This document shows, piece by piece, positions 794 through 46,399 of a DNA stretch of 64,000 bases. The stretch covers positions 45,012,001-45,076,000 of the forward strand of contig OX597827.1 in NCBI GenBank assembly GCA_951406725.2, written 5' to 3'. The notes beneath the pieces were generated by a model. It searched no databases. It worked only from the letters and a program-made list of their open reading frames with translations, and was not told the DNA's origin. Numbering within the stretch: the stretch's first letter is position 1; the number at the start of each line of letters is the position of its first letter. Origin of the DNA: Octopus vulgaris (Eukaryota). The position numbers and the translations under genes were made by a program.

Positions 794-2199
794 ATTGAGC
801 TATTTAGTTGAAACAGTTTCAGAATCTAAATATTCTGGGAACTTTCTGTAAGACGGGGTATAATACAATGTCAAAGGCTTCGATAGCAACAAGATGTGGA
901 ATAGGTGACAGAAATTTCTTCGTCGTGTCATGGAAGTGGGGAGATGTCAAAATTATGTCAAAACATGTTCGAAGCTGTTTCCCATCTTGTTCGAGATTGA
1001 ATGAGGTGGGGGTTGGTGAAAATGATATATCTAATATAAGCACAAGTCCTCAAATATAGCGGGCGGAGGCAATAGGCTATTGAACTGACATCAAAATTTG
1101 GCTGCTTACCTTAGTTTATTAAACCCACCAGAGTTAACACCAACATTCCCATGTACAGTAGAGATGCCCCCACCCCTATATCTCATACCACAATGTGGTG
1201 ACACGACATTTGTTAAGAGAAATATCTTGTGCTTTAAAGAACAACACAGCATGGAATATAAACCCTAACAAACATCCACTCCACTTCCCACACCTCTATA
1301 AATTAGACCAATTTTTCTTCAATACTTCTAACATTTATTCTATTTAATATTCTCATTAAATAATTTCACCTGTTCAAGGAAATTTCAAAAACTTTTAATC
1401 AAAAACAGGTAATCTAAGAAAGCATAGTTGAAGAAAAACGTCGAAAAATAAAACGAAATACTATTCTAGTTGTTAAGGTAAAGGGCACAGAAAAAAAAAT
1501 CCAAGACCGTTGTTTAACTCCAGGTCAATCTTGGTCGAGCAGATCAATGGCCAAAGAACATACCGCTTTTGAATTTTCATCTATCTAGGATACATTATAC
1601 GTATCTATCTATCTATCTATATTACTACTGCCTAACAATTCTTTCCCTCTTCTCACCATGGTGTGCCACTTAACCATTCTTTCTGATAATGGATTTACCT
1701 AAAAAAAGACCCGATCTATTTGGATTTAATTGGACTCTCCCATTCTCTTGGACATAATGAACCACAACAAATATTGATGAGGAACATTCTTCCACTGTCT
1801 AACCTATATTTCTCCAATGACGGGATACCAAACTTACTGAATCTTCGCTCGATACGACGCTCCAATAGCTTCTTTTCACATAGCCACGCACTATCTTTAC
1901 CATTTGTAATGTAGCAAAATTTTAAAAATTCAATCAAATGAAATTATATCTCCTTGTCCTGTGTTGCCTAATTGTTTGCCTTTCCTCAGTACTTTAACTT
2001 ATCCCTACTGACTCAACATAATCACTCAACCACAAGTTCTATTGTTGTTCTAACTGGAATTTTGGTGGCACATCTGTTTGCGCATTCAGAACAGCATATC
2101 TATTAGTTTGAGTCATCCTGACGAAAACTTTTCATGTCCTCTTTATACATTACTACAAAATCCAATGTGTCTTTTTTTTTTTTGTTGAAGTCAATGGCA

Positions 2200-2411
2200 T
2201 TTATTTAGTTGGAGATTTCGTTGCTGTTCCCCTTGTGAAAAACGAGTATGTGCGAAGTCCTAAATAGAGAAAACGGTGGTAGTGATGGCGGAAGTCCTAA
2301 ATAGAGAAAACGGTGGTAGTGATGGCGGTAACACATAATCGGATTATTTATAGACGGGTTACATCACTAACAATTACACCGCCAGGACGCGTCTTTACAA
2401 AGTCATAACTG
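2200..2411 (+). promoter_or_regulatory. Putative promoter and first non-coding exon of the PUS1 locus
   Basis: Locally CpG-rich and free of interspersed repeats. Contains GATGGCGG (YY1-like) and GCGGAAGT (ETS-like) motifs. Strong donor CTG|GTGAGT at 2411/2412. The TSS cannot be determined from sequence. Confidence 0.5.
2254..2327 (+). repeat. Perfect 37-bp tandem duplication in the promoter region
   Basis: GAAGTCCTAAATAGAGAAAACGGTGGTAGTGATGGCG at 2254-2290 and again at 2291-2327. Confidence 0.95.
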
Positions 2412-3141
2412 GTGAGTTATCTCGAAAGTATTTCATTGGAAAAAAGTAATTAATTTACATCCGTTTGTTGAATTTGTCAGCATTTTATTTCGTCGTAATC
2501 AAAACTACAGAGAACTTTTGGTCCTATACTTCACGTTAACTCCAATTCGTGCTGCTCCAAAGAAAATTCTCATTTACCACGTGTTTAGGTACCTTCACGC
2601 TGTACAAACTTAAAAATTGAATACTTCACCTTCAAAATTATTTTATCTTGTATATTCCTTGTTTTTTTTTTGTTGAATTGGTACTAAACGACATTGTCTA
2701 TGTTTTGTTAGTTCAAGCATTCATGTAGTTTTAAGTTTGGGTAATTTAAAAATATATTTTGGTCATTAATTTACAGGTTTTTTTTTTTTTTTGTAAGAAA
2801 GAAAAAAAAGAAAAGAAAATGAAATTTCATTTTCAAAATTAGTTTTTTTTTTTGCTAATTTGATTAAGAAAACGTCTCCTAACGTTAAGTACGTGTACTT
2901 AATTCTCTGCGTTTATTCACGAAAAGCGTTTAAACTGCCGACATTTACCGATATTTGGCTGTGCTAAGTTCTCGGGGGGGAAAAACTAACATATACCAAA
3001 GGAAACAATTTATTCTACAACTTCAGTGTCAGTTTTGTTTTTATTATACTGTTCAACTTATGGAATTGTTTTCAATATCTGCTTATCCGTATGTTTCATT
3101 ATACGACTTGCATTAGACATGGAAAAACCGGTTATTAAAAC

Positions 3142-3191
<50 letters not shown>

Positions 3192-3283
3192 AATAAAAGG
3201 ATGGCAGTGTTCTTAAGTCTTATATATATATATATATATATATGTATTATTCAAATGATAAACTTTATTCGATTTATTTTCAG

Positions 3284-3324
3284 GTGTTTAAAATTCAGAA
3301 GAATATTGAAGTTACCTCCTACAG
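3284..3324 (+). other. Putative 41-nt 5' UTR exon
   Basis: Acceptor tttattttcAG|, donor CAG|GTACTG. Contains no ATG. Confidence 0.45.
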
Positions 3325-3705
3325 GTACTGTAAAAATACATCTATCATTTCCCCCACCTTCTAACTTTTAACGCTTGTGTGTGAATGCATTTCATAATTC
3401 CATAATTTAGGTAGAATATGTTGATAGTAAAATAGTAACAGACCAAATTGCTACACACTGCTTCGTTTTGTTTTTCATAAGTTGCCGAAACATTACTGGA
3501 TGGGTGCGTGGGTAAATTGTTTTTCTTCTCATTGTTCCTTAAATTGTGTAAAGAAAAACAAACAAAAAGTAAGGACTATGAAGCATGAATGTGGGTAATC
3601 TTCATAGTGATGCTACTCATGGTAGGGAGACCCATGGAGGCTGGAGTGAATTGCACGAAAATGAGAAAATATTGCATTAGAAGCAGAAGCTGATATATCC
3701 TGAAA

Positions 3706-6055: not shown

Positions 6056-8043
6056 CCCCAGGTTACATGTAATACACTGGGAGAGCTTGTGATTCAAAAT
6101 ATCTTAATTTGAGCACATTATTTTGTTTGTAAACTACAATATGCATGCCTTGTACCTGGGTATATATTGTGTGTTTTATGTACTTTAGGCCCAATTGTCC
6201 TGTTACTTCAGTTGGTGTTGTATCTGAATACACTTTCTGTTTACAGACTGTGTGATGGTAATCAACAGCACATCCTCTTTACAAATGCATCTCACCATCA
6301 CTGAGTTGAAATTTTATAGCCCATAAATTATGGATTTTCATATGAAATCCCTTCCATGTTTACTTTACTAATTGGTTATATTTTCACAGCCTGAGCATTA
6401 TTGAAAATATTAAAGATTTTTATTGTTATTTACAGTTTCACTCATTACTTGAGGTAATACTGAATGCATTTTGGTTGTTTCCCATTAACATCTAAAGCGC
6501 TCTGTTATAAGATATTGGCAGGTAACTGATAGGATCTTTGATTATGCATACATAACAACAGGTAACCTCATTACTGCTGGAGTGTTCAGATTGTTAAAAT
6601 GTATTGGATTATTGATCACACAGTTAAGCATTCAAACTTTTAATATTGTAGCCATTTTACTGCATCCTTGATAAACTCATCCAGTAGAAAATTTAGCTAT
6701 AAAACTGATTATTTTTCTGACAAAATATCTTTCAGCCATTCTAGCATGTGAGATTGGTTGTAAAATAGTGCTGAATAATTTAAAATATCTGGGGTTTTCC
6801 TTAACCCTTTAGCATTCAGATTTCTTTGTCAAATGTAATGTTTATTTATTCACATTGTTTTAAATTGACCATGCATTGTCTTGTAGCTTCAAGATTTTGA
6901 TGATTCGATAGTTTATTTTTAGAATGACATTGTAGGGTAGGTGTGAGAGGCTGGACTTGGCCAGTTTGAACATAAATCAATATTAGATGCGAAAGGGTTA
7001 TAAAAAAAAATGACAAATAGTCTTTATATATGGGTGAATGAGTTGTAAAGTGATGAGGATTCACTTGTTTGATCAACTTAATTACCTGCTCATTTAAATT
7101 AATGCGTAGTGAGTGAGTATTTCTGAGACAAGTGTATTCATAAAGATGTAATTCTTAGTCAAAATGAATATGGCACTTTGTAACATATATACATATATCT
7201 CGAGGTGCAGGCATGGCTGTGTGGTAAGAAGCTTGCTTCCTAACGACATGGTTCCGGGTTCAGTCCCACTGTGTGGTACCTTGGGCAAGTGTCTTCTACC
7301 ATAGCCTCAGGCTGACCAAAGCCTTGTGAGTGGGTTTGGTTGACGGAAACTGAAAAAAGCCCATTGTGTGTGTCTGTCTCCCCCACCATCGCTTGAGAAC
7401 TGATGGTGTGTTTACGTGCCTGAAACTTAGTGGTTCAGCGAAAGAGAACGATAGAATAAGTACTAGGCTTACAAAGAATAAATTCTGGGGTCTTCGCTAA
7501 AAGTATAAAAGAATCTGTATAGGTTTGAATTACAAGTTCTGTCTCATCAGATGGCGCTCTATAGTTTTAATCTACTCAGTTTCTCTCACAATGTATGGGT
7601 TGATCCAGAGCTAATCAAATGATGCTTATGATGCTGGCACTTTGTAAAAAAAAAAAAAAAAAAGACACAATACACACTGTAAAGTGGTTGGTGTCAGGAA
7701 GGACATCCAGCTATAGAAATCATGTCAAAATAGAGCTTGGTGCAATCCTCTGGTTTGCCAGCTCCTCTCAAACTATCCAACCTATACCAGAATGGAAAAT
7801 GGATGTTAAATGATGATTTCCTGCACTGGGATTGAACCTAGGCCCTCATGGTTGTGAAGTGAACTTAACCAATCTGCCGTATTGTACTTACATTTGGACA
7901 TATATCTTTATATAAGCATGTTATTTATATATTCTAGAAGAACTTTAGGTCCTTCTTCAAAACCGTTTGTTTTTTCTCTCTTCCTTTTCATTGGATTCAT
8001 GGAATAACTGGCTGTCTTGTTTCTTAGCAGAACATAGCAGCAA

Positions 8044-8256
8044 ATGGACACGCCTGACTTTGAGAATTTGTCCGAAGATGAAATCAGGGCTCTGGTCCTG
8101 AAAGCAACACAGTCAGTTGAGAAATGTCCCAGTGTTAAACGGAAGCGTGCAACTAGGAAATGTAAAATTAATTTTGTCGAAGTAATCACTGAAATATCTC
8201 GAAGAGTAGATGGAATTTGCCAGAAAGATATTCTTGTTGCTCCGAAAGCCTGTTAA
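8044..8256 (+). CDS. Candidate 70-aa uncharacterised microprotein (acidic N-terminal helix, basic KRKRATRK segment)
   Basis: Non-repetitive ORF with protein-like composition. Preceded by a pyrimidine tract and tandem acceptors (ttctTAG/CAG at 8025-8030). In-frame TAG at 8035 fixes the ATG start. Followed by about 4.5 kb of U-rich, repeat-poor sequence. No homolog recognised. Confidence 0.45.
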   Translation: MDTPDFENLSEDEIRALVLKATQSVEKCPSVKRKRATRKCKINFVEVITEISRRVDGICQKDILVAPKAC

Positions 8257-11200
8257 TATTTTATTTATTAATTTTTTTTTTTTTTTTACAATTTCTATTT
8301 TTCATTTCTTTTCGTTTCTGTGTTAATTACTGGTTGGCACACTGGCAGAACCGGTAGAGCAACAGGTTAAATGCCTGGCTGTATTTATTTAAATACATTC
8401 TTTTATGTTTGAGTTTTAATGCTGTTGAGGTTGACTTTGCCTTTCAGTCTTTCACCAGTTGATAAAATAAGTACCAGTCATGTACTGGAGACATGTATTG
8501 ATTATCACCAGCCTAAGTTACTGATGCTTTTTCGTTATTATTTAAAATGTTCTCAATACTGTTCTTGATTTTATGTAATATATAAATATAAACATTTGAG
8601 AGGAATTAACCAAAACTGGTTGAAAAAAATTCCTGGATTGAAATTTCTAAATTTCTGAGATTATTTATTGCTGTAAATAAGATTATTTTTTAAAATTAAT
8701 TAACCACCTCTTTAAAGTGTATATATTTTTTTGTATGTTTTTAAGAAAAAAATTTTCATGTTTAGCAATATTTAATTTATTTAAAACAAAACATTTCTTT
8801 TAATTTAAACACAAGATAAAAGCAAACTAGCATGGTTGGGATTGTTAGAATCCCAACTCATTTGTTGTGTTCTTCATATCTGCTGTTGGCATTTGGTAGA
8901 ACATCTAATTAATTCTATGTTGCCTTAGTTCAGCTACTTGTGATGGTATGGTGGTGGGAGATAGATACCAGATTTTTTTTTTTCTCTGGGAGTGTTTATC
9001 TGTGATAAATTTGTGACATGTCTACAAAGAGATATGTTCAGCCACCATTTGTTTGTTTTTTTTTTTTTAAACTTTTATATGTTATGATGATGCTTTCTTG
9101 TAAGGACAAAGAAAGTCCTACACACAAATGAAAGTGACTTTTACTGTGATTTGGCTGCAAGGTTTTCCTAGCAAAAGTATTGCCACTAAAAGCCAGCTAT
9201 AGGTACACTAGCTTTATTATGCTCATATTTAGTCAGCTTGAATGCCTCAGGGATCAGGGCTACAATTAGTTTAATGGAGTTTTGTAGCTTAATTTTATTC
9301 CAATGAGCCCTTCTTGATGTGGGAGTGAGGGACATATTCACGTTTGCGCTTCTCTAGGTTGCATGGCTCATTCGCAGTTATCTCCCTTCTTCACCAAACT
9401 CAAATATACTTCCGTAGAAACTACCCAGTTATGACGTGTTATCACAAAATAAACTTTTTATCGCCCATCCTTATTAAGCCTTACACGTTTGCTTGTTTTT
9501 GTTTTTCTCCTTACCTTTTCCTAATTTTTTCTGTCTCTACGTGTTTCTTTTATTTTTAAACTTCTTCAGCCTTGCTATAAACAGCTTTAAGTAGATATTT
9601 TAAAAATGATTTGAGGGTAAGATAAATTTAACAAATAGATTAATCTTAATATTCTTATTCACTTATAAATACAACTCTCGTCAGGTTTCTTGCTTTAGGA
9701 AAATTGGAATTTTGATCCAAAGTTTTTTTTACAGCTTTTCCTGCTTGGTTTATTATATCAAAGTTCTTAAATATGGAACTAACAGTGGAAGAAAAGTAAA
9801 ACTGAAACTCATTAAAAAGAATTATTTTTGTTCTTTTGTTGGCAAAAGATTTACTTTAAGGCTTTGATATGTTAAAATACAGAATTAAAGAATTAATGGT
9901 AATTTTGAACAAGTAAAACACACACACATACATACTGTACTTTAAGTCCTTTGTAGTATTGTATATTATGTTTTTGTTCATTTACAATGTAGTCCTGGAC
10001 ATACCATTCTAGTATGGAGTGCCAACGACCAGCTCCATAGGTTTATAACAAACAATTTTGGTACATAACTCTAAGCAGTTTTAATTTATATATTTAAATT
10101 TTAGCTGAAGATAGTTTTTATTTCAATTTTACAAACCTTTGTTGGTTTACAAAAATGTTTTCGTATTTTTAGTTGGAAATTTTGCACCATACCAAAATTA
10201 GTAGGAAAACATCAAAGTGAATCAGAATTCTGGTTTTTTGTCAAATAGTGATTCATTTTGTTCTTAAAGTTGGATTCAGGAGATGTGTTGGTTATGTATT
10301 ATAACTACCTTAAGAAAGGACCTAATTTACTCTTCTGATACTCCCTTCTGTCCTGATATGAGTTACTTTGAACCACTGAACTTTCTGTTTACTTCTGGGA
10401 GCCAGACTCTCTTAGTTGTCATAGTCCCTCCATTTGTAAAGACAAAGATCTAATTTGTTCTTTGTCAGCAGGAGTCAGGTAAATGGCATTGATGACAGAT
10501 GTTTTTGTTAGCTTGTAGTGCTGAGTTCAAATCCTCTCATTGGTTCTGGAGGAAAGCAACAAAGTGGAAGCTTGGGGGTCTCCAAACTTGGAATCCTACA
10601 TTCCTCTTTGAGGCCAGGCATTTAAAAGGACCAAAAAGAAACCTGATAATTCTGAGAAAATATTTGACTAATACGAGTAATATAAGATCTTTTGAAATAA
10701 ATATCTTTATATTGAATTAGTTAATACTAGTCAAGGAAGGAATGTGTTTGATGTGCTTTGATATTTGGTTAGAGAATAGTGAGTTTTATTTGTTAGTCAC
10801 CTAGCTCCTCTTCTTGAAATGTCTTGCATTTCTCTGCTTTGTGTGGCTAAAACCAGCTTCAATTTTGTACAAACTATGGAATGGAAGTAAAAACGGCTCA
10901 ACTGCTGCTGATGTAAACTTGTGCTTTTTGATAGCATTTTCTTTAAATTTCTTTAAAATGTTTCAGCTTCAAAGCTGTGGTGATGCTGGGACATGTTTAC
11001 ATTTATTCTAAAGCAGTGTCTTAGCAGCCTCGTTAGAGTGTTGGACAAAATACCATACTGTAATTTTTCCAGCTCTTTACATTCCCATTTCAAATCTCAC
11101 CAAAGTCATCTTTGCTTTTTGTCTCCTTGGGTTTTTTTTAACAAAATAAAGTACCATTTGAGAACAGGATTGGTGGTATTGACTAATCTCTTTCCCCACC

Positions 11201-12700
11201 AAAATTGTTGTCCTTGTGCCTAAATCAGAGACAGTTATTTTGTTTCTGCAGGCTTTGTTTTCTAATCAAATGGTAACAATCCTATTAAGGACATCCAGTT
11301 TTTCTCTAGATCCCCAGAACACATTTTAAAAGTCTTTCTTCAACTTTTCAGGGTATTGTAAATACATTTCCATGTCACAATGTTTTTAGCTTCTTCCAAT
11401 TACCTTAAGTTTGAAAAATATTTCATTCCTGTGCTAACCCTTTAGTATTCATATCATTCTGTCAAATGTGGTGCTTATTTATTTACTCTTGTAGCTTTGA
11501 AGGTTTTGGAAGGACATAGTAGGGTAGGTGAGAGAGGCTGGATCTGGCTAGTTTGAACATGGAACAATATTTGGGCTGGATATAGTCAGTTAGACTATTA
11601 AAGGGTCAAATAAGCTGATTTTGACTTGATCCTCTTTTAGGCTGACTCTGGTTTCAATTTCTGTAACACTTTGCAGATGCTTTTGTATTTCATTAAATTT
11701 TGAAAATAGACCTGCCTCTTGCATTGTTTCAATTGTTCACACAGCGATGCTTACATCAGCAACATACTTCACACTCAATTATAGAAGTCAACTAGTTTTT
11801 ACAGGTGGCATCCTTGACAACCACTTTATATCCATGTGCTGGAGTAACTGGTTAAGTTTTATAATTTTGTTTACATTAGTCTTGAATGTAGACGTGTTTT
11901 AATTTAGTGATTTATCAGATATTTTAAATGCCTCCTGCAATTCACCACTGAATTCTTTGGTACCAAAGAACAGTATACACATTGAAATCCTTTTTCTTGA
12001 GTATGGTGGTAAATCCCTAGTTATGTCCAGCCATTGTGGCTGTCCCATTATTAACCACTGCTCTAATATTCCTGACAGAATAATCCTTGACTTATTTTTC
12101 ATAACACATCAACTTTGAGCTATTAGGTAAGCAGATAATCACCATTAATATACTTTAGGCTTGGTCTATCACACTTCCCAGAAGCTGTAAGACTATTTAA
12201 ATTCCAAAAGTTGGATTCATTGAGTTGACTGCTTTGTCAGCTTTCAGTTACAAAATTTCAGTTGAGCTCTAGGAATTTGTTTTAAACCCCTTTGGGGGCC
12301 TTGGTGGACATAATCATCCCAGTTTTGATGAGTTGTCTGTGGTGCTACAATGAATCTGTGGCAGGAGTTATGGATCACATCTCTTGCTGTTACTCGTATT
12401 TTTTAATGTTAAGGAAAAAGATCTTTTTTTTTTTTTTTAAGGTAAGCATTTACTTCCAGGATTGGATGTAAAACAGACCCCTTTATCTAAACTGTTCAAA
12501 TTAAACTCTTTTTTTTAATAAAGACAGATTGCTTCTTGACATTTTTTTTTAAAACAAAGTTTAGTTAAACAGTTCAACTAAATAATTTTATAAATAAAAT
12601 CCAGCACTGTCATCTCATGAAGTATATTTTGTGATAAAACAAGAACAAGCAAAAAGATATTTTTATTTATGCATGATATATAACTATTTGGGTGGCAGAC

Positions 12701-12731
<31 letters not shown>

Positions 12732-15700
12732 AAGGCCTTTGTTAAATATTTTTTTAATGTTATATATTTCTTCCTTCATATTTGTTAATTATATTTTTGA
12801 TAAAAAAACAAAACAAAGTGAAATAAATAATTCCATCACAACATTGGAGTTGTCTATAATTTTCGTTGTTTTTGCATTCTCTTAATTTCTGAGGTAAAAT
12901 CCTGCCAAATGCTGACTTGGCTGTTTGTCTTTGCAATAAAATTCCGGGGTGTGATAAAATGAGTACCAGTAATATACTGGTTTGGGTTAATAGGCTATCA
13001 TTACCTATACTTCAAATTTATGGTTTGGTGCTGTGGTGGATTGGATAAATCACAAGAGCAGTGGAGAAAATGATTTGCAGCATTTTTTTTTCCTGGCTCA
13101 TTTTATATATATATTTTTTTTCTTTTACTTGTTTCAGTCATTTGACTGCGGCCATGCTGGAGCACCGCCTTTAGTCGAGCAACTCGACCCCGGGACTTAT
13201 TCTTTTGTAAGCCCAGTACTTATTCTATCGGCCTCTTTTGCCGAACCACTAAGTTACAGGGGTGTAAACACACCAGCATCGGTTGTCAAGCAATGCTAAA
13301 GGGACAAACACAGACACACAAACATGTACATACATATATATACATATATACGACAGGCTTCTTTCAGTTTCCATCTACCAAATCCACTCACAAGGCATTG
13401 GTCGGCCCGGGGCTATAGCAGAAGACACTTGCCCAAGATGCCATGCAGTGGGACTGAACTCGGAACCATGTGGTTGGTAAGCAAGCTACTTACCACACAG
13501 CCTATACCTGAAAATGAAGTGAAAATGATTTCTTGCAGACATGAGACTGCTGTTTATATATATTTTGTTTCAGTCATTTGACTGCGGCCATGCTGGACCA
13601 CCACCTTTAGTCGAACATTCAACCCCAGGACTTATTCTTTGTAAGCCTAGTACTTATTCTATCAGTCTCTTTTGCCGAACTACTAAGTTACGAGGATGTA
13701 AACACCCCAACAGTTGTGGAGCGATGGTGGGGGGGAGGACAAACATATATATATGCGATGGGCTTCTTTAAGTTTTCGTTTACCAAATTCACTCACAAAT
13801 TCACTCGGCCCGAGGCTATAATAGAAGACACTTGCCCAAGGTACCATACAGTGGGACTGAACCTGGAACAATGTGGTTTGTAAGCAAGTAACTTAGCACA
13901 GCCACTCCTGCACAAATACACACATTGTTACTATTATGTTAAACAGTTGTAATGTCCAAATTTGGCCAAATGCGGTTTTTTTTTTTTTTTTTCTTCAATA
14001 TTTATTTTCTGCTTGCAATAGCTGGTTCTTTTGGTCAAACCATTGTATCTCCAGCTGCTTCAGATGCCAAGATATCAAAAATTGTCAAAGTGTAGTACAA
14101 TGGTTTTGTTATGGAATGGTGAAACTATTTTTTACATTTTCTGAAAAAGCAACGTCTTGGACTTACACTTTTGCTTTATAGCAACAATATACTCTTTTAC
14201 TTGTTTCAGTCATTTGACTATGGCCATACTGGAGCACCGCCTTCAAGGATTTTAGTAAAACAAATTAATCCCGGAACTTGCCTCTTTTGCGAAACTGCTA
14301 AATCATGGTGTTATAAATACACCAACACTAGTTGTCAAGTAGTGATAGGGACGGACACACACACACTGAGCTTTCAGCATTCATGTTTACGAAATCCACT
14401 CACAAAGCTTTGGTTGGCCCAAGGGTATTATAGAAGACACTTGCTCAAGGTGCCACACGGTGAAACTGAACCTGGAACCCTGTGATTGGGAAGTGAGCTT
14501 CTTACCACATAACCATTTTATATATATATATCTATATATCACGTGTGCACACACAGTTTACTGTTCCGTAAAGGTAAGATCAATAAAAGAAAAAGTAGTC
14601 CATCCAATGACATACAGGATTTAATGTATACAGTATAAAGATGTAAGCTTCTAATAGTTACTTGCACTGGTGATGAAGGTCTAGACAGATTTTTATAGCA
14701 TTCCTTGTGTTTCAGCAATCTACAGGCTCTGAGCACATGATCTATTCGATTAACAAAACTGGATGCTGCTGGTGCAAGAGAAATCACAAGAAATAAACGA
14801 GAAGGTAGATGCAATAAGTGGTATGGTGAATAAAAACAGTGAAAGAAAGTTAGTGTTATGTTCCCTTTGACTGTAAAACAGTAATTAAGCTAGTTGAAGA
14901 ATAATTCTATGGAGTGGGGTCTAAAATCTTCAAGACAGCTGCTCAATCTGGTGTGGGTTGTGTCCTCCAGTTCACCAAAATAAATTTGTCCATGTGTTTG
15001 CATTTGCTGAAAATTTCAGATCTGGAATTTTTAGATCTAAAAAGAATATGTGACCTTTCAGCTATGCTTAATTTGCATTTCTTAGAGCCATTAACATATA
15101 ACCTGAGTGGCCAGTGTAATTGATTAGTCACCCCTCCCTCAAAATTTCAGGCCTTGTGAAAGGATTACTATAGTGGTGAGCTGGCAGAATGGTTAGCACA
15201 TCGGACAAAATGCTCTGTTGCATTTCTTTGGGCTTTTTGTGTTTAACCCTTTAGCATTTAATCTGGCCATATCTGGTTCAAATATTCTACCTGTTTTATG
15301 TTAAAACAGACCATATCCAACTTCTCACACCTACCCTACAATGTCATTTTAAAAATAGACAAAACACACCATTGAAATATTGAAGTTGCTAGGTAATCAT
15401 CATCATATAATGTCCATTTGTCCATGCTGGCATGGGTTGGATGGTTTGACCAGGTCTGGCTAGGTGGAAGGCTGCACCAGACACCAGTCTGATTTGGCAT
15501 GGTTATCTATGGCTGGATGCTCTTCCTAATGCCAATCACTCTGAGAGTGTAATGGGTACTTTTACTTGCCATTTGCACAACACCAATATCTGCCATAATA
15601 ACAGTTTTGCTCAGCTTGATGTTGCCTTCTCAATTACGGCATAATACCAAAGGTCTTGGTCATTGCCTCTGTGAGGCCCAACACTCAAAAGCTGCTTTTC

Positions 15701-18548: not shown

Positions 18549-19391
18549 AATAATAATAATGTTGGTTTCAAATTTTTGCACAAGGCCAGCAATTTTGTGG
18601 GAGGTTTTGTTGATTACACTTTATCCGGTGTGCTAATGATGCTGGTAGCATGCTGCTTTTATGAGTAAGAAATAATCCTTTCTGCTATAGGTGCAAGGCC
18701 TGAAATTTTAGGGAGCAAGGACTGGTCTATTACATTGACCCCTGTGCTCAACTGGTACTATTTTATTGACCCTGAAAGGATGAAAGACAAAGTCGCCCTT
18801 GGTAGCGTTTGAACTCAGAACATAAAGAGGGACAAAATATTGCTAAGCATTTTGTAATAATAATAATGGTTTCAAATTTTGGCACAAGGCCAGCAAGTTC
18901 AGGATAAGAGTATATTGATTACATTGACCCCAGTACTCAACTGGTACTTATTTTATCAACCATGAAATGATGAAAAGTAAAGTTGAACTCAACAGAATTT
19001 GAACTCAGAACATAGCAGGAGACATAATGCTGCTAAGCATTTTGTCCAGTGTACCCACAATCCTGCCAGCTCACCACCTTAATAATAATAATAATTCTTT
19101 CTACCGTAGGCACAAAGGCTAGTTGATTACATTAACCTCAGAGCTTGACTGGTACTAGGTGGGTAACAAATTGGCTGAGTTGAGATCATCAGATAGACTA
19201 CTTTTGCAGTATGTGTTGGCGTTTGCTGTAGTCTGAGTTCAGATATTGCCGAGATGATCAACGTTGCTTACCAGTTTGGGAAGGTCTGCAAATGTTACAA
19301 ACACTGCTTTGTCTCGATACTAACAATGTCATTCAAATGCTAAATTTTGTTTTATTTTTTTTCAGGGACTCTCGTGGGAAGCATTTGATGT

Positions 19392-19469
19392 ATGCTGAAA
19401 AGAATTGTGTCCAGATTAGTGCTGACTTTGAAGCCAAGAAAAATGCTGGAAGTGTTAACAACCAGCGAG
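19392..19469 (+). CDS. PUS1: PUS1 coding exon 1 (exon begins at 19366): [26 protein letters not shown]
   Basis: Acceptor tttttttcAG| at 19365. In-frame TGA at 19386 precedes the ATG. Donor GAG|GTAAAC, phase 0. Confidence 0.8.
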
Positions 19470-22116
19470 GTAAACAGAAATATAATTTATTATGTCATAG
19501 TATGTCGGCCCATCTTGACTGAACAACATTACTTGTTTTAGTTTCATATCTAACTAGTCACTATGTACGTGATTGGTTGAGCTGCTAGCTAGAAATAACA
19601 GCCAAATCTACCTCAAATTACATAACTCAGGTTCCACCATCTAATAAGAAAATAAAGTTAGGATATTTTAGATACTATGTCTGAATGTAAGATGGGAGGG
19701 TCACAAAGGGGCTATCCTTGATTATAAATCTGCTGGTATAGGATTGGTCTTGAGTTAAGCAACAACAAGAAAGAAGGACACAAGATAATGAAGTTTTATA
19801 TACACTGTATCTGAATAAATGAATGAAGGTACTTAGTTCAAATCTTTCCTTGAGTGTTTATAAGAGAAGAATATATGAGGGGTTGCTGAAAAGTTCCTAG
19901 CTTTGGGTAAAAGAAAATACAGGAGGATCAGTTAATTATGATTTTATTCAACACTTATATTCCCCTCTCAGATTCACATACTTATTGTAGTTTTTTTAAG
20001 CCTTGTAGAAGAACTCGGAAGGTTGGGCCTTAAACTGGGCCTTTTGCGAAACCCTTAAAACCAGGAACTTTTCAGATGCACCTCCTCATATGTATAAATT
20101 ATCTCCTATTCCCTTTGATTTACTGGCGTAAATCAAAGTTAGCTCCAGAAACAAGGCTCTTATGCATATTGGAAAAATATTCATAGTAACTTTTTTGTTA
20201 TGTTTTATTTTTCATTGCAAATGTCTGAAATGTGTTTGTTGTAACTGTAGGCTGCTGCCGTGAAACAAGAAACTGATGACAAAACAGCAATGAAGAGACA
20301 GCATGATGACGACGATAATGATGACAGCAAAACTCCTTCGAAGCTTCTTAAAGTGAGTTTATTTCAAGATTATAATTTTTCAAACTATTAATTTTGTCTT
20401 TGAGAGAAGAAACCTTTCTTCTTCCTCTCTCTCTCTTTTTCACAATATTACAAGCATACTTATCTGTGTTGTGTGTGTGTGTGTGCATACACACATATGG
20501 TGGCGAGGTGGCAGAATTGTTAGCACACCAGGCGAAATGCTTAGCAGTATTTCCTCTGCCGCTACATTCTGAGTTCAAATTCCACCGAGGTCGACTTTGC
20601 CTTTCATCCTTTCGGGGTCGATAAATTAAGTACCTATTTCTTTATTACCCACAAGGGGCTAAACATAGAGGGGACAAACAAGGACAGACATAGGTATTAA
20701 GTCGATTACATCGACCCCAGTGCGTAACTGGTACTTAATTTATCGACCCCGAAAGGATGAGCCGCCCCCATAGTTACCACCACCACCACCATAACCACCT
20801 AAAAGAAATTACAATTAAATGGTTGGACAAACAAGGACAGACATAGGTATTAAGTCGATTACATAGGTATTAAGTGCGTAACTGGTACTTAATTTATCGA
20901 CCCCGAAAGGATGAAAGGCAAAGTCAACCTCGGCGGAATTTGAACTCACAACGTAACGGCAGCCGAAATACAGCTAAGCATTTTGCCCGATGTGCTAACG
21001 ATTCTGCCAGCTCACCACGATAAATTAAGTACCAGTTACTCACTGGGGTCGATCTAATCGATTTAATCCCTTTGTCTGTCCTTGTTTGTCTCCTCTATGT
21101 TTAGCCCCTTGTGGGCAATAAAGAAATAAGATACGTTAGCACACTGGGCGAAATGCTTAGCAGTATTTCGTCTGTCTTTATGTTCTGTGTTCAAATTCCA
21201 CTGAGGTTGACTTTGCCTTTCATCCTTTCTGGGTCGATAAATTAAGTACCAGTTGCATACTGGGGTCAATCCAATCGACTGGTCCCTTCCCCAAAATTTT
21301 GGGCCTTGTGCCTAGTGTAGAAAAATATTACAAGCTTGGCTGTGGGGTTAAGGAGCTTGCTTCCCAATAATGTGGTTTCAAGTTCAGTCCCACTGCAAGG
21401 CACCTTGGACAAGTGCCCTCTATTATAACCCCATGTTGACCAAAGTCTTGTGTGTGGATTTGGTTGACAGAAAATGAAAGAGGACCATCATGTCTGTCTG
21501 TGTGTGTGTGTGTGTGTGTTGTCTTGACATTGCACTACATTTGTGAAACAAGCACAACCTTCTTACAATATTGTTCATTTCTTATGTTCCATGAAAACAT
21601 GTTTGGCCATGGTGATATAATAAATATTATGCTTGGAAACAGGAGGGTTGATGACAGGAAGGGCATATGCTGCAATGAATTCTGCTGATCCATGCAAGAG
21701 GGAAAATGAATGTTAAAAGTATGAAGATGATAACTAAGACAATAACATTGTTTTTTTTCATGTCTGTTCTGCCATTCTAGCATGGGTTAGATGAATATTT
21801 TATTGAGGCATATATATATATATATAAATATAATAAATATTAGGGAATAAATCCAAACTTACAGGGAAAAATCAGATTTAGGATTGAATCCAATTTATAG
21901 TAAAATATTATATTATATTAAATTAGAGACAAAACCACTATTATGCAAATCAAACAAAGAAAGACTTAATCCAATACATAAATTAATTTATATTATTTAA
22001 AAATTTAACAATTATTAATATCCACTACGATCGTTTCATGTCTTCTTTTCATCACATCTTTGAGTAGTAGACATTCTTCAGGTGGTTTCAAATATTCTTG
22101 GCGAGTTTAAACTATA

Positions 22117-22149
<33 letters not shown>

Positions 22150-25100
22150 ATTGAGTTGAAGCATTGGTGTAACCATGATGTTCTGGTGATCTGATGAGCT
22201 AGATTTCTGTATTTGCATGTGTAAAAGATTCGAGCGAGGTCATTGCCAGTGCCACCTGACTGGCCCCGTGCCGGTGGCATGTAAAAGCATCCACTACACT
22301 CTCGGAGTGGTTGGCGTTAGGAAGGGCATCAAGCTGTAGAAACTCTGCTAGATCAAGATTGAAGCCTGGTGCAGCCGTCTGGTTCGCCAGCCCTCAGTCA
22401 TTCGTCCAACCCATGCTAGCATGGAAAGCGGATGTTAAACGATGATGATGATGATGATGATGATGAAATTATTATTACATGTAAAAGGCTGTGAAATGGT
22501 TGTAATCCTAAGGATGACATGTGGTTAAATAAACATATTCATCTCTCATACCTCCTGACTTTATATATATACACACATATACACACTCATACCTATTCAC
22601 ACATACTTTTGAATGTCTTATTCATGCGTTCATGTCCACATGTAAGAATAATGTGTTGTTATTTCTCTTTATAACCAGAAATCTGAAGCAAACATTCCTA
22701 TCCGAACTGATCGGAAACGTAAAGTAGCATTGTTGATGGCATACTCCGGAGAGGGTTACTATGGCATCCAAGTGTGAGTAGACGAAACGTTTCATCTATG
22801 TCTGTAATGTTGTTGTTCTTGTTGTTTTAGCCCCAGGTCTCTCCTTAGTTGACAGACCGTGTTTGAAGTGTGATAATAGTAATTTTTTTTTCAGAGCTCA
22901 CTATTTCTAGGAATACAGTATAAAAATCCTTCATTTTATAAGACATTAGTATGTGAATCAAAGGAGATTTAGCTGCTATTTCTATTGAGTAACCACAGAG
23001 GCATCTTCATTGGTGTGTTGAATTCAATCAGATTTGGCCTATAGTGAGTTACACTAACTTCAGATATGTACTTCTGAAATCCTGTATGGTTAATTGCCGA
23101 CATTTGTATAGATCAGTGGTTTTTTACCAGGGTCCAAATGATCCTTAGGGGGCCATATGGTATTTTGTTGTTGAAATTCATGTTCAATAAACAGGTTATA
23201 CCTCTTACAATACTCATAATATTTTAGCAATTTTTTTAATACAATTCTAAATAGTATTTAACTATAAAAAACATAATAGGATTTTTTAAGCATTGAATGA
23301 CTCTGAGGATTCAGTTGAGTAAAAGAGGAACCAAAGGGGCCCACAAGCAGAAGATAGTTGAGAACCACTTGTATAAATTATTTGCAGTTTGACCAGAGAA
23401 TGTGTAGTCTTCACTTGCATTGAGATTGAATGGGACATGACTTCCTTGAATTTTGGGGGGTATTTTTTTGTAATCAGGTCCACAAAGTCAGCATTGTGAG
23501 TTTTAACCATCTTACAGCAACGCTCTCTGCCCTCTTCTCTCTCAATCTTTCTCATGTTTTTCACTATCTTACTCTCTACCTTGTTCTTCCCTCTCTATCT
23601 ATCTTACCTTCTTCCTCACTTTCTTCTCTCTGCCTCACTTACACTCTTCGTCACTCTCCCCTTATTGCATATATCACTCTCTTCCTCACACTTTCCTATC
23701 TGCCTCTCTATCTCCCTACTTCACTTCCTCTCTCTCTCTCTTTCTCTCTTTCTGTCTTACTGACTGCCTCTCTATCCACTTTTATTTCTCTCTGTCTCTG
23801 CTTTCCTTTCTCTCTACCAACCTCATTCTCTGTTCCTCTGTCTCATTTCTCCTCCTCTACCAACTTTCTCTATTTCCATGCAGGTCACTCCTCCACATCA
23901 CATGGACACTCAAAAAAAGCATTCTAAAACTTTACTATATTTTCATTTCACATTTGATTTTACTTCCATTTTTATTTTTCTCTCTTTCATGAACAATTTC
24001 TAGTAATTCCGCTTTCCCAACAATTGAGAGTGAACTGTTCAAGGCACTGGTTGCTGTTGGACTTGTGCCACAAGACCATGTGGACAACCCATATAAGGTA
24101 AGTGTGTGTGTTGTTAATCTACACCAGTGGTTCCCAGCCGGGGTTCATATAGCCCCTGTCGGTCCATATAAGATTTTTGGGAGTCCACACAAGAAAATAG
24201 TGAATTGGGGACCCACAATAGAATTTGAAGGGACCCTGAAAAAATTTTGCTGGTGCCATGTAAAAAGCATCCAGCCCACACTGCGAAGTGCTTAGCATTC
24301 GGAAAGGGCATCCAACTGTAAAAACCTTGCCAAAACTGACTTTGCTTGTGCTGGTGCCATGTAAAAAGCACTCGGTCCTCTTTGCTGGGTGGTTGGTGTT
24401 ATGAAGGGCATTCAGCCATAAAAACCATGCCAAAACAGACACAGAAGCCTGGTGTAGTCTTCTACCTGGCCAGCTCTTGTCAAACTGTCTGATGCATGCC
24501 AGCATGGAAGGTAGATGTTACACGATGATGATGATGATGATGATGATGATGATATGTATTGCAAGAAGCACCTAGGTTTCTTTCTCTAACATTTTAAGTA
24601 TTTCATCCTACACATGTTATCATCATCATTTAACATCTGTTGTCCATGCTGGCATGGGTTGGATGGTTTGACAGGAGCTGGTAAACTGGAAGGCTGCACC
24701 AGACTCCAGTCTGATTTGGCATGATTTTCTATGGCTGGATGCCTTTCCTAACGCCAACCACTCCGAGAATAGAATGGGTGCTTTTACGTGCCATTTACGT
24801 GACACTAGTATCTGCCACAGCTGCGGTTTTGCTCAGCTTGATGTGTCTCCTTCCCAAGCATGACATAATGCCAAAGGTCTCAGTCATTGCCTCCGTGAGA
24901 CCCAATGCTTGAAAGGTGCTCTTTATGTGCCAGTTATGTGACACCAGCAAATATGTGAAAAACAAAATAGGAAATTTTGAAAGATGTTTCTATAAAACTA
25001 TTTTTTAAACATTGAATGACTATGGGGGTCCAACAGAATAAAATAGTAATCAAAGGGGTCCAGAGATAAAAAAATAGTTGAGAACCCCTGATCTATGCTA

Positions 25101-28100
25101 ATATTCCTCGTGTGGATGTGTTTTTTTTATGCATATTAATGTCCTCTATGTTAAGCAGAGGCATAGTTGTGCGGCAAGAAGTTTGCTTCCCAACCACATG
25201 GCTCTGTAATATTGGTATCAAATTTTGGGATGAGGCCAGCAAGCTCAAGGGAGGGGGTAAGTTGATTATATTGATCCCAATGCTCAACTGGTTCTTATTT
25301 TATCAACACTGATAAAATGAAAGACAAAGTTGATGTCAGTGGAGTTTGAACTCAGAACTTAAAGACATACGAAAATGTCACGGAGTATTTTGCCTGGTGT
25401 GCTAACGATTCTGCCAGTTCACTGCCTTCTGAGCTGAAAGAAATATTGCAAGGCATTTCGACCCCAGTATGCAACTGGTACTTAATTTATCGATCCCAAA
25501 AGGATGAAAGGCAAAGTTGACCTTGGCAGAATTTGAACTCAGAATGTAGCAGTAGGCGAAATACCGTTAAGCATTTCACCCCTCGTGCTAACATTTCTGC
25601 CAGCTCACCGCCTTCTACCTGTTACTGCTAACCAACTGACCTTGTCCTAGTAAACATTGAAGTCATGCATTTTTTTTCTTGTTTTTTTTTCAGATGTCTT
25701 TCCAAAGAGCTGCTCGTACAGATAAAGGTGTATCTGCTATTGGACAAGTTGTTTCACTGAAGATAAGTATCTGAACTGTTTTATTGTGTTATTTAAATTT
25801 TATACCTCATAACACCTCTAATTAGTCAAGCCAGCTCCATGTGAAGGATACCAGTGTTAGCAGCACATAAAAAGCACCTGTGTTGCTGCCATGTGAAGAG
25901 CATCTGTGCTTGTACCACAGAAAAAGCATTCATGCTGGCACCACATTAAAAACACCCATGTCAGCACCTTGTAAAAAGTACCCTTGCTGACATCATGTAA
26001 TCAGTACCCATGTTGCTGTCACATATAAAGTACCTGTGCTGGCACCGTGTAAAAGCAACCAGTACACTCTGTAAAGTGGTTGGCATTAGAAAGGGTATCC
26101 AGCCATAGAAACCATTCCAAAACAGACAATTGGGGCCAAATGCAGCTCTCCAGCTTGTCAGCTCCTGTTGAACCATCCAACCCATGCCATCATGATACAG
26201 ACATAACACAGGCTACGCTTTCAGGTTTTTTGGGTAAAGTTTTCAGAAATAACCCAATAACTTTACCATTAATTCTGTGAAATATTCTCGGGTCCTGTTA
26301 GTACCTATTAATTTCAGTCACAAGGCATTTGACAGCCCATGGCTATCATAGACGTTTTCAGATATTTGTGTCTGCAATAGAATTGCTGAATGCATTCAAA
26401 TGGTGAGAGATATTTCCTTTTAGCTCACATTTGCTGCCTTTGTTTAAGTCAAATATTCCAGTTAAGAAAATGGCAGTTTGTATGTTGGAAGATATTAAGC
26501 GAGCGACTAGAATCCTTCGATCACCTCTGTCTACGCTGCATCCTTCGTGTCCAATGGCATCACTTTGTCTCCAACAATTTGGTGCGACACCAGTACAAAA
26601 TCACCTCCCTCCGACAAGTCATCCTAACGAGATGTCTACGTTGGCTAGGTCATGCCCTCCGTTGTCAACTAGGAGAATTCGTATATGAAGCAGTTGCCCC
26701 AGCTCCCCTTCGGGGCTGGCGAAAGCGATGTGGTGGACAATGAAAAACATAGCTAATGACAGTCAAAGCTGATCTGGAACCCAACCTAGGCCCCCATATC
26801 TACAGCATTCGCCGCTGGAATAAGGAGTGGTTGGAGATCACGTGGTCGCTAGCCTCAAATCGCCAGGTCTAGTTGGCATTTGTGAGAGATGCAGCACTGA
26901 GGACGAATGAAGCCAGCTCAACCCACCCCTGGTGAATGCTGTCTCAAGACAAGACAAGACAGTTTGTATGTTGGGGTACAAGAAAATGGCAGTTGGGGTA
27001 CACATCATACTTAGAGGCTTTGCTTTATTGCTTAATGTTTTTTATATATTTTTTTTTTACATGTTGATACATTTTGATAATTTGATTGATCGACTCAATG
27101 AGACACTTCCAAAACAGATCAGAATCTTAGGTAAGTCAGTCTTTTAAATGATTTTAAATCTCTTGTTTTGTGGGTTTTCTCTTTCTCTTGTTTGTTTTAT
27201 GGTTTTATTATTTATTGTTTGGTATGGGGGGGAAAAAAAGAGCCTTCTGATGAGAAATGAATGAAATTTATTTATTTATTTATTCATCGTCATCATCATT
27301 TTTTAAACATTCACTTTTCCATGCTTGCATGGGCCAGACAGTGGTGCATTGAGCATAGTTTCTATGACCAGGTACCCTTCTTGTTGCAAGTCCCTGCTTA
27401 TTTCCAAGCATGGTAATAATCTCTTAGTCTATGGAACAACAAACAGCCTGGACATGCTTGTATGGTAGACTGTCAGTAAACAACACCAGAAGACCATCCA
27501 GAAGCCATTGCTTACAAACCAGCAAACACACAAAAGGGATATACGAACTTACTCACACAACTTAGACACACACACACACACACACACGCGTGCGACAGGC
27601 TTCTTTCAATTTCCGTCTTGCAAACCCACAGACAAAACTTTGGTAGGCTGGGAACTATAGTAGAAGATACTTGCCCAAAATGCCATGCATTGGGATTGAA
27701 ACTGTGTGGCTGGGAAGCAAACTTCCTTACTACACTGCCTTGCTTGCACCTATCTTGCTTTCTACAATTTGCTTTCTACACAAAATTTCTAAATCGAAAT
27801 GAAAAGAGATAACATTTGAGCTGGTAGTGAGTCAACTGGTTTATTGTGTATCAATTCTAATTTTCTCTCGTGCTTTTCATTTTTGTAGGCATGCTGCGTA
27901 CTACAAATTCTTTCAACAGTAAGAACCATTGTTCACATCGTACATACATTTATGTTATGCCAACGTTTGCACTGACTCCTGTAGAAGAGGTATGTATGTT
28001 GAAAATTGCATCTACAATGACAATTTTTTTTTTTTTTTTTTGCAATATTTGTTATTTAACTCTTTCGATACCAACCAGCCTAAAACCGCCTCTGGCTCTG

Positions 28101-29433
28101 TAGTACAAATGTCTTGTTTTCATTAGTTTTGAATTAAAATCTTTCACCAAACCTAGTCACAATTTATGTTCCTAACACTAGCTTAATGACTGGACATTAA
28201 ACTCTGCTTGCGAAGACCTGTTGAGGCAAGTGAAATCGAAATTGAAATCAAATTCATGACTGGCATCCATGCTAGTGGAGCACTAAGAGCACCATCCGAG
28301 CGTGATCATTGCCAGAGCAGCCGGTGGCACATAAAAAGCACCATTTGAGCGTGATCGTTACCAGCGTTGCCTTACTGGCACTTGTGCCGGTGGCATGTGA
28401 AAAAACATTTGAGTGAGGTCGTTGTCAGTGCTGCTTGGATTGGCTCTTGTGCAGGTGGCACGTAAAAAAACACCATTTGAGCGTGGCCATTGCCAGTACC
28501 ACCTGACTGGCCTTTATGCCAGTGGCACGTAAAAGCACCCACTACACTCTGAGTGGTTGGCATTAGGAAGGGTATCCAGCTGTAGAAACTCTGCCAGATC
28601 AAGATTGGAGCCTGGTGCAGCCATCTGGTTTGCCAGTCCTCAGTCAAATCGTCCAACCCATGCTAGCATGGAAAGCAGACGTTAAATGATGACAACGACG
28701 ATGATGATGAAACACAGAGCATCTCAAAATAAGTACAGTAACGAAAGGGTTAAAACCTTTAGCACAACATGTGTTTATATATTTGGGGTGAACTTATTAT
28801 TTTGTAAGGATGAATAACAAACAATGATTTGCTTGTAAAAGAAAATCTATGGTAGGATTCAGTTATGTTCCTTTATATTCAGAGTTTAAAGGGATAAGCC
28901 ATGCTTATCCCTTATTTGTCAATAGATAAAAGGTTCTAGTAATACACTGCAAGTTGATTCAAGTGCTTAAACGCACACACACTCATACACATGCGTGTGC
29001 ATGCAGCATCTATATTCTTTTGTTCTTGTTTCACTCATTAGACTGTGGGACTGCTTTGAAGGGCTTACTTGAGTAAATCGATCCCACTACTTCTGTTACC
29101 TCTTCCATTGGTCCCTTTTGCTGAACTGCTGAGTTTAGGAGTCATAAGCAAAGCAACACTGGTTGTCAATTGGTTTTGGGACAAACACAGTGATATGCCC
29201 ACACATTCATATATGCATGCATACATGATCATATGGTGCATGCACACACACAAATGTGTGCACATGATGGTCTTCCAAATAGTTTCCTTAAACCAAATTC
29301 TGTCAAGGCATAGGTTGGTCTGGTCCTATAATAGAAGACATTTGCCCAAGGTTCTGCACAGTGGAACTGAACCAGAGACCATGTGGTTGCAAAGAGAATG
29401 CCTTAGCTGCCCAGCCATACCTGTGCCCATATG

Positions 29434-29485
<52 letters not shown>

Positions 29486-29795
29486 ACAAAAATATGATAG
29501 AGAAAATCAGATCTTTAATTGTTGAATTCATTATAGAATTATAGAAAGCCGACAGTTGTTTCTGTTGTAGCAACAGATTTAGATACAGAAAATATTGAAA
29601 TTAATATATTCGAAAATGCATGTTAACACAATGTCTTCAAGGTGATCCAAAGTTGGTTAAATTGAAAATGAACTAAGGAAATATTTCCAGTACACAAGCA
29701 CATACAAAAAGAACATTAAGATGAAGAATAATCTAAGAAGACTTAATTTTGTATTCAACTCTTGATGATGTCAGTGGATAACGAAAGAATAAAAA

Positions 29796-29850
<55 letters not shown>

Positions 29851-30138
29851 AAACTTACTTAGAAATGGATGCGTGCGTTCTGTCGTTTAATAACAAATTA
29901 ATAAATAAAACATATGCATATATACATACATATATGTACGTACCTACATCTACATGTATATATACATGCATATATGGTACAGGACACCAAAAAAACGTCG
30001 AACACAATGAGAAACGAAAACATAAACACAAAACCAAGGAACTGGACATTTTTCTTAAACAACGAAAAAATAGAGTACAGGACAAATAACACAAGGAAAA
30101 TTCCCCTTCTTCAGTCGCCATGGTTTCATCTACTCTGC

Positions 30139-30189
<51 letters not shown>

Positions 30190-30937
30190 TTACGTTTTCT
30201 TTTTTATGTTTTATTTGGTGTTTAAATTCTAAATGTTTTTTTTCTTTCTTTCATTCCAGAATGTTGTTTTAGATTACAGAATAGAAGGTAAGCTTCCTGA
30301 AAAATATTTCCTTTCTGTCATTGAACTTTGAATTACGAAGGAGGTTAGATGACCTGCTGCTGTTAGGATTATGTCCTAACACAACATAACACGACCCTAA
30401 TTGATAGTATATCTCATAATAAGATAAAGAATTGACAGTTCATATTCTGTAACTTGACTTCCTTCTCTCTCAGTGGCCATTCCACCTTATTGTATGGGGT
30501 TGGCAGCACTATTAAGAAAAGTTTCACAAGTGTTTTGTTGAACTGCAGTTTTTGAATTTAATGCCTTAAGTGAAGTTATCTTAGAGTAGACTAGTTCGAT
30601 GGCAGATTAAATCTTTTGATATCAGCCTGTTTGAGACCATTCTTGGTCTTATAATACAAGCTTCCTGTTTAAACCTTTCAGCATTCAAATTACTCAGTCA
30701 GATGTAAAGCTTATTCACATTCTCTTTACCCTCTTTTACTTGTTTCAGTCATTTGTCTGTGGCCATGCTGGAGCACCGCCTTTAGTCGAGCAAATCGACC
30801 CCGGGACTTATTCTTAGTAAGCCTAGTACTTATTCTATCGGTCTCTTTTGCCGAACCGCTAAGTTACGGAGACGTAAACACACCAGCATCGGTTGTCAAG
30901 CGATGTTGGGGGGACAAACTCAGACACACAAACATAT

Positions 30938-30972
<35 letters not shown>

Positions 30973-32484: not shown

Positions 32485-32519
<35 letters not shown>

Positions 32520-38645: not shown

Positions 38646-38678
<33 letters not shown>

Positions 38679-40639: not shown

Positions 40640-40672
<33 letters not shown>

Positions 40673-46356: not shown

Positions 46357-46399
<43 letters not shown>

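Follow-up and report, generated by a model that had tools for sequence, protein, structure and literature searches.

In this work, we analysed a 64,000-nucleotide stretch of the Octopus vulgaris genome (assembly GCA_951406725.2, contig OX597827.1, positions 45,012,001 to 45,076,000 of the forward strand; hereafter the window, in whose coordinates all positions are given) that holds the gene for the RNA-modifying enzyme PUS1 and, upstream of the first coding exon of that gene, a 70-codon open reading frame (ORF) at 8044..8256 on the plus strand. We consider it probable that this ORF is part of a coding last exon that shares a promoter and non-coding exons with PUS1, a splice choice picking which of the two proteins is made. 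An earlier, sequence-only reading of this DNA had proposed that shared exons are spliced either to a terminal ORF exon or on to PUS1. A spliced, separately ending ORF exon now has indirect support from contig geometry, contig cover, a homologue (P0002) and amino-acid composition. Its status as a single, unbroken terminal exon may not hold, owing to a contig that ends at a donor at 9616.

Coding character of the ORF

The translation of 8044..8256 is exactly that given by the sequence-only reading, and the peptide (P0001) is predicted to consist of an acidic N-terminal helix, a basic KRKR linker and a second helix. The ATG at 8044 is the first after the acceptor described below. At least 70 codons are opened by 9 of 340 intronic ATGs (2.6%), and the length of the ORF alone is therefore about a 1-in-40 event. 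We scored amino-acid usage by log-odds, with two PUS1 and three PP1 proteins as a small training set and six-frame translations of introns as the background. The ORF reached 0.142 per residue, compared with a maximum of 0.005 (mean -0.111, standard deviation (SD) 0.066) for 50 of 50 other ORFs of at least 60 amino acids (aa) in 3325-8020 and 8257-19365; the five other reading frames also scored 0.005 or less. The GC content of the three codon positions (0.50/0.39/0.34) follows a coding-like gradient. Judged by these properties of its sequence, the ORF looks coding.

That the ORF is not derived from a repeat, as had been claimed, agrees with a self-BLAST of the window, which found no repeat on 8028-8341, and a check for a transposon fragment revealed neither a second copy of the ORF in the window nor a transposon domain in Pfam. 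No named homologue, family or fold was found for the peptide: Pfam gave 0 families at E<=1, PHROGs nothing usable (one match at E 0.21), the sequences of solved structures 0 matches at E<=10, and viral contigs 38 pattern matches, none of them confirmed. The ESM Atlas returned no usable match for P0001 or P0002, which shows neither novelty nor absence. Besides, Rfam gave 0 matches on 2000-20500, and no fused or longer form of the peptide was seen among 140 candidates, in a search that is weak for this purpose.

A single homologue and possible selection on the frame

Among 5.8 billion proteins (1.84 billion representatives), one homologue was found, the unnamed protein P0002, carried on 3 Logan contigs. 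It is identical to P0001 at 64 of 70 residues (91%), and the two proteins agree in start, stop and length. The protein collection, which contains NCBI and UniRef, lacks P0001, and 0 of the 3 members of the octopus PUS1 cluster come from Logan. Because P0001 is missing although 19 of the 24 listed sequencing runs contain the stretch or a part of it, the lack of a squid or other mollusc homologue is not evidence of restriction to octopods.

Neutral evolution of the frame was simulated with a transition bias of 3 and an indel rate that were both assumed. At a distance of 1%, six or more changes arose in 0.3% of intact frames. At a synonymous distance (dS) of 0.091-0.123, which is the value for O. 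bimaculoides and O. sinensis in passages of PMC10925132, six or fewer changes arose in 0.2-3.8% of intact frames, and dN/dS would be about 0.35-0.45 if P0002 were as distant as these two species are from each other; their PUS1 cores differ at 8 of 294 residues. One of the runs, X15, carries an O. sinensis-type PUS1 allele and differs from the window at 3 of 1,558 intron letters (records 17-21); this closeness, together with the simulation at 1%, indicates that P0002 likely comes from further away. Purifying selection on the frame is probable but would be significant only if P0002 lies at a neutral distance of about 9% or more. That X15 shows no difference in the ORF (0/228) was rejected as evidence of selection, the introns being equally close.

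Acceptor and contig geometry

The good acceptor that had been noted before the ATG is a tandem one (TTCTTAG/CAG/AAC, slashes marking exon borders), and its two possible exon starts, 8028 and 8031, lie 16 and 13 nucleotides (nt) before the ATG; acceptor and 13-nt leader occupy 8028..8043 on the plus strand. The region 7900-12900, or part of it, is present in the above-mentioned 19 runs, which belong to 7 studies and whose status as RNA is a guess, and the contigs of four of the 24 listed runs (X1, X6, X11 and X15) were placed on 2150-20420. Contig ends point to 8031 as the exon start. In X6, record 27 matches 8028-8255 and is preceded by 27 non-genomic letters; with a contig word length that we take to be 31, this number is expected if an exon with CAG at its end joins 8031 and the fork lies 30 letters farther upstream, the same CAG being found at 8028-8030. 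In X15, record 21 (7697-8057), which crosses the intron-exon border, and record 22, which starts at 8028, have exactly 30 letters in common, and this points to a merge point for entry at 8031 and not at 8028. Exon ends of the form [ACT]CAG/GT that fit this geometry occur at 6 places in 2150-8027, one of which is the predicted exon 3284-3324. In three runs, 0 differences were counted in the contigs listed for the ORF.

Three of the ORF pieces end at 8255; a splice at this position was rejected, as no donor fits and a T-rich repeat comes next. Pieces likewise stop at 12687, presumably on account of the TA repeat that follows. Contig depth over the ORF and over the PUS1 exon at 19414-19432 was also recorded and amounted to 8.7/82.7 in X1, 17/217.7 in X6 and 315.5/34.1 in X15. 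The reversed order in X15 hints at most at a tissue switch, given that contig depth cannot rank genes and the libraries differ, and it was not used.

Promoter-like region and upstream exons

A CpG-rich region at 2001..3400 (plus strand) is the putative promoter. Among non-repeat 400-nt intervals in 1-20000, a CpG observed/expected ratio above 0.8 was reached in 1-600 and 2001-3400 only, and the non-repeat intervals downstream of 3400, up to 20000, stayed at or below 0.74, in agreement with the earlier claim of a sole promoter-like region at about 2.3 kb. The other CpG-rich non-repeat stretch, 1-600, borders on the edge of the window, about 2 kb before the promoter-like region, and perhaps belongs to a neighbouring or divergent promoter. 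A non-coding exon 1 is predicted from the sequence at 2254..2411 (plus strand), with an uncertain start and the donor CTG/GTGAGT at 2411, and a 41-nt non-coding exon 2 at 3284..3324 (plus strand; TTTTCAG/ ... CTACAG/GTACTG), which has no ATG and is likely the shared exon. At 2254-2328 there is a perfect 37-nt tandem duplication with ATGGCG twice (2285, 2322) and CGGAAG at 2288, presumably YY1-like and ETS-like sites, respectively; it adds upstream ATGs and may reflect an allele or a duplication in the assembly.

The long tail and its donors

The ORF is followed by a likely 3' untranslated region (UTR) of about 4.6 kb at 8257..12850 (plus strand), recognised by its repeat cover and contig cover. 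This tail had been described as U-rich and repeat-poor, of which the latter holds clearly and the former only slightly (T 39% vs 34-36% in introns): repeats cover 6.8% of 8021-12850, compared with a minimum of 21% and a median of 39% elsewhere in 3325-47300, as computed in 296 intervals of 4.83 kb that overlap and represent only a handful of independent ones. Listed contigs of up to 2,513 letters cover most of 9081-12687 in X1 and parts of it in X6 and X11 (three studies), and those of X15 cover 12509-12687. The AATAAA hexamers reported near 12595 and 12820 were found at 12593 and 12822, and further ones occur at 9448, 10696, 11145, 12517 and 12935. Because contigs continue beyond the cleavage position that AATAAA 12593 would give, the hexamer at 12822..12827 (plus strand) is the likeliest distal poly(A) signal; the listed contigs reach 12687, short of it, and contigs cannot show where a transcript ends. 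A tail of 4.6 kb would be about twelve times as long as the median octopus 3' UTR, which passages of PMC9699675 put at 350-380 nt. In X15 there is no long listed contig from about 8.5 to 12.5 kb, for which a short isoform or an end-biased library is possible; this observation was not used.

The absence of an obvious downstream donor, noted by the sequence-only reading, turned out to be true only up to 9615, as five consensus donors follow, with exon ends at 9616, 10478, 11527, 12126 and 12441. Record 28 of X6 ends exactly at the donor 9616, an event noticed post hoc with a chance of about 0.9% (1 of 8 contig right ends on one of 5 donors); record 30 of the same run starts at 10114, and record 4 of X1 runs through 9617-9734 unspliced. 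The letter after a fork at 9616 would have to differ from G; this excludes the PUS1 exons 19366 and 20251 and fits the acceptors 9735 or 10115. A possible optional 3' UTR intron may occupy 9617..9734 on the plus strand (AGG/GTAAGA ... TTTTTTTTACAG/C), with an uncertain 3' end for which 10114 is the other candidate. Lying 1.36 kb past the stop, such an intron could mark the message for decay.

The PUS1 host gene

For two exons of the host gene, solved structures of PUS1 were found as matches (E 3e-6 and 3e-7), and the RefSeq protein XP_029645097.1 of O. sinensis can be followed through the successive exons between 19392 and 47282, with three differences in the first one. The window is accordingly likely to come from a close sister of O. 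sinensis. Pfam gave no match on ten single PUS1 exons, and PUS1 was confirmed through the structure and RefSeq matches instead. The coding exons of the 487-aa isoform extend over 19392..47285 (plus strand). The first one, 19366..19469 (plus strand), starts at a strong acceptor, a claim of the earlier reading that is borne out by the sequence and the RefSeq mapping, and PUS1 therefore needs an upstream untranslated exon. The RefSeq protein begins at the ATG 19392, which opens a basic, presequence-like peptide; a TGA lies in frame just upstream, so that nothing upstream can be fused to PUS1 through this exon. At least four RefSeq accessions carry one identical 487-aa O. sinensis PUS1 protein, which suggests variants in untranslated exons, the positions of which are not mapped by these accessions.

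Some further observations concern PUS1 itself. A second in-frame ATG, 17 codons after 19392, would give a form without the presequence, and an out-of-frame ATG at 19388 comes just before 19392. The same two in-frame starts are found in a distant PUS1 cluster (P0009 vs P0004), and they likely serve a leaky-scanning control of mitochondrial versus nuclear forms. Between the window and X15 there are five letter differences within 19 nt at 19414-19432, giving the O. sinensis residues R8K, T12R and K14R; between these sister forms they make up a sharp cluster in the presequence, the basic character of which is kept, and nearby introns differ at only the 3 of 1,558 letters given above. Alternative last exons (40056-40193 and 44343-47285) lead to 420-aa and 487-aa forms, respectively, both present in RefSeq for O. 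sinensis, and the C-terminal end of the 487-aa form is a Thr-rich repeat.

Structure and motifs of the peptide

AlphaFold, given a two-row alignment, modelled helices at residues 11-26 and 35-54 with a mean pLDDT of 58. The peptide contains 11 acidic and 14 basic residues, with KRKR at 32. Foldseek found no match at E<=0.001 for this low-confidence model, and a likeness to ribosomal uL29-like hairpins (best Z 6.1) was not taken as a family, the arrangement being a common one. The earlier reading had pointed to KRKR and KINF as possible functional motifs, adding that short motifs often arise by chance, and this caveat was justified, as a KRKR-type motif occurs in 22.6% and the loose RVxF pattern in 12.5% of 5,000 shuffles of the peptide. 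KINF (residues 41-44) is kept in P0002 and fits the loose pattern [RK]x0-1[VI]{P}[FW], which according to passages of PMC4794898 about 25% of proteins contain by chance. Compared by eye, it does not match the extended pattern [KR][KR][ACHKMNQRSTV]V[CHKNQRST][FW] of the same passages, and two other, stricter patterns gave no match. The view of KINF as an RVxF consensus thus stands for the loosest pattern only, and docking to PP1 has no support from it beyond chance. The predicted complex of the peptide with L006, a PP1 stand-in from a metagenome contig that closely matches solved PP1, scored 0.02 against a mark of 0.34; computed without alignments, it speaks neither for nor against binding. The idea that residues 9-21 resemble the N-terminal helix of PP1 was dropped, as neither Pfam nor solved-structure sequences supported it. 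Provided that the ORF is translated, the model and the KRKR motif tentatively suggest a small two-helix, probably nuclear adaptor that would bind a larger protein; docking to PP1 through KINF is less likely than this role, and we regard it as improbable.

Proposed model of splice choice and alternative explanations

In the arrangement that we favour, a transcript would start at the CpG-rich promoter at about 2.3 kb, and exon 1 would be spliced to exon 2 (3284-3324). From the donor 3324, one route would lead to the near acceptor 8031, as indicated by contig geometry, with the ORF being read and the transcript ending near 12.84 kb or possibly earlier; the other would lead to 19366, skipping 16 kb, and make PUS1. 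The near acceptor, followed by a separate poly(A) site, would compete with the far one, and since one donor has two alternative acceptors, the products would be mutually exclusive; whenever the near exon is used, PUS1 output would be limited as well. This shared-exon model agrees with the presence of a single promoter-like region and with the in-frame stop that closes the PUS1 frame upstream.

Several observations weigh against it. X1, X6 and X11 are taken as RNA by guess, and X15 is of uncertain kind. Record 27 of X6 has fewer than 31 letters on its upstream side and so does not count as bridging the junction, five other upstream CAG/GT places fit the geometry, and the joints listed (15 of 1,651) are all repeat-to-repeat, with neither 3324 to 8031 nor 3324 to 19366 among them. 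Record 3 of X1 (7914-8255) is an ORF contig that enters from the intron unspliced, and the contig end at 9616 suggests that the ORF exon is not always one unbroken block. Regarding translation, the ATG 8044 has a C at -3, and exon 1 would carry two upstream ATGs (2285, 2322) if transcription starts before 2322. The six changes in P0002 are only mildly conservative (p 0.07-0.13), exactly six changes are an ordinary outcome of neutral drift at 3-6% distance (11-16%), and P0002 could be a paralogue. Finally, the adaptor role draws on a model of mean pLDDT 58 and on a motif present in about 23% of shuffles.

Some of these points would be accommodated by an exon that is spliced and transcribed but non-coding, that is, an intronic early-termination isoform that throttles PUS1 and carries a chance ORF. 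An ORF of this length at about 1 in 40 intronic ATGs, the fit of the P0002 changes to drift at 3-6% distance and a peptide lacking a family or named homologue in our searches all agree with it, as does the donor 9616, which at 1.36 kb past the stop would expose the message to decay, provided that octopus has a decay pathway triggered by junctions. Notwithstanding, the amino-acid score lies 3.8 SD above the 50 neighbouring ORFs, the GC gradient is coding-like and P0002 keeps the same start, stop and length, and we find this explanation rather unlikely. It is also conceivable, if improbable, that the microprotein gene is real and has no exons in common with PUS1, the 2.3-kb promoter serving one of them while the other starts elsewhere. 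The junction 3324 to 19366 is not among the joints listed, the fork after 3324 in X6 could set the intron against 8031, given that G is the first letter of the intron as well as of exon 19366, and five other upstream CAG/GT ends fit; but there is no other CpG-rich non-repeat interval in 3400-20000, and the strong acceptor at 19366 needs an upstream exon.

Two further possibilities appear highly improbable to us. The ORF might be an upstream ORF on some PUS1 messages, its exon leaving through a tail donor and rejoining PUS1 in a bicistronic message. The tail offers five consensus donors, and the post hoc coincidence of X6 record 28 with one of them (chance about 0.9%) would fit, but listed contigs cross all five unspliced in X1 or X11, even though contigs drop rare forms, and a fork at 9616 excludes the PUS1 exons 19366 and 20251 and fits the local acceptors 9735 or 10115. 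The intronless ORF inside a 5' intron might also be a transposon fragment or retrocopy, with P0002 as another copy and not an orthologue, in a genome about 66% of which consists of repeats (O. vulgaris, PMC13282606). Against this, the window holds no second copy, Pfam gives no match, the listed ORF contigs of three runs show 0 differences, P0002 is the only relative among 1.84 billion representatives, and no longer parent was seen among the 140 candidates. Returning to the shared-exon model, it is tempting to speculate that an octopod-born microprotein gene captured the PUS1 promoter, that the choice between 8031 and 19366 is a tissue-regulated switch between pseudouridylation capacity and a new nuclear regulator, perhaps PP1-targeting, and that the intron at 9617 tunes the message by decay; taken as a whole, this extension is improbable.

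Comparison with known systems

Nested pairs that share a promoter have been described, for example RBM12/CPNE1, ADAT3/SCAMP4, FASTKD5/UBOX5, PELO/ITGA1 and ANG/RNASE4 (Yang et al. 2008, PMC2568002). Passages of that paper list 24 human promoter-sharing pairs and propose for RBM12/CPNE1 a choice by splicing and poly(A) site between a near and a far acceptor (PMC2568002). The octopus locus resembles RBM12/CPNE1, as described there, in having unrelated coding sequences on the same strand, a proposed splicing and poly(A) choice and 5' exons that would be shared: the ORF 8044-8256 lies between the promoter-like region 2001-3400 and the PUS1 ATG 19392 and is not fused to PUS1. In RBM12/CPNE1, however, the shared exons are shown by cDNAs from human, mouse and zebrafish, whereas here contig geometry points to them, and what is nested in this case is a mollusc protein of 70 aa without known family. 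The locus likely belongs to this type of promoter-sharing pairs.

In the cholinergic locus, VAChT lies inside the 5' intron of ChAT and has a non-coding first exon in common with it, in invertebrates too. The octopus locus is alike in that one gene lies nested in a 5' intron of another and would share a non-coding first exon with this host; but both cholinergic products are known and belong to one pathway, whereas the peptide and PUS1 have no known link. SNURF/SNRPN, ASDURF/ASNSD1 and the MIEF1 upstream ORF are conserved upstream-ORF microproteins on bicistronic messages. They likewise involve a protein of about 70 aa located 5' of a housekeeping gene, with which it would share the promoter in octopus, although their ORF is on the main-gene mRNA and the contigs found here continue into a long separate tail. 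DP71L, a 71-aa viral protein, is a small PP1 regulator. The peptide resembles small RVxF regulators of PP1 in its basic stretch followed by K-I-x-F (patterns in passages of PMC4794898), and differs from them in a C at -2 and an I for V, the lack of a PP1-binding match in Pfam, and a motif modelled, with low confidence, in a helix.

The literature searched held, among the matches listed, nothing on the octopus PUS1 locus, a nested or upstream-ORF arrangement, cephalopod small ORFs at this place or a 10-residue piece of the peptide. The searched parts of the supplements of PMC9712504 and PMC9699675 contain no PUS1 term, and annotation files there may hold the exon.

Other features of the window

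A retroelement remnant, presumably Penelope-like, lies at 61350-62865, with a 380-aa frame and a weak reverse-transcriptase match (RVT_1, E 0.014). At 59060-60690 there are long triplet-repeat tracts with low-complexity frames of 150-270 codons on both strands, an ordinary microsatellite expansion.

Concluding remarks

The layout of this locus is already known from other genes, more than 20 human pairs being listed in passages of PMC2568002; what is new is the orphan protein, and any surprise lies in this protein and its possible regulation. If the proposed arrangement is true, octopus annotations miss a protein gene, since neither P0001 nor a named relative is present in the collection that includes NCBI and UniRef, and work on octopus PUS1 by counts per gene, by knock-out or through its promoter would confound two products. 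The locus would then provide a testable case of an orphan microprotein on a borrowed housekeeping promoter and, in an animal studied for its RNA-level regulation, a case of an RNA-modifying enzyme with an either/or control built into its gene.

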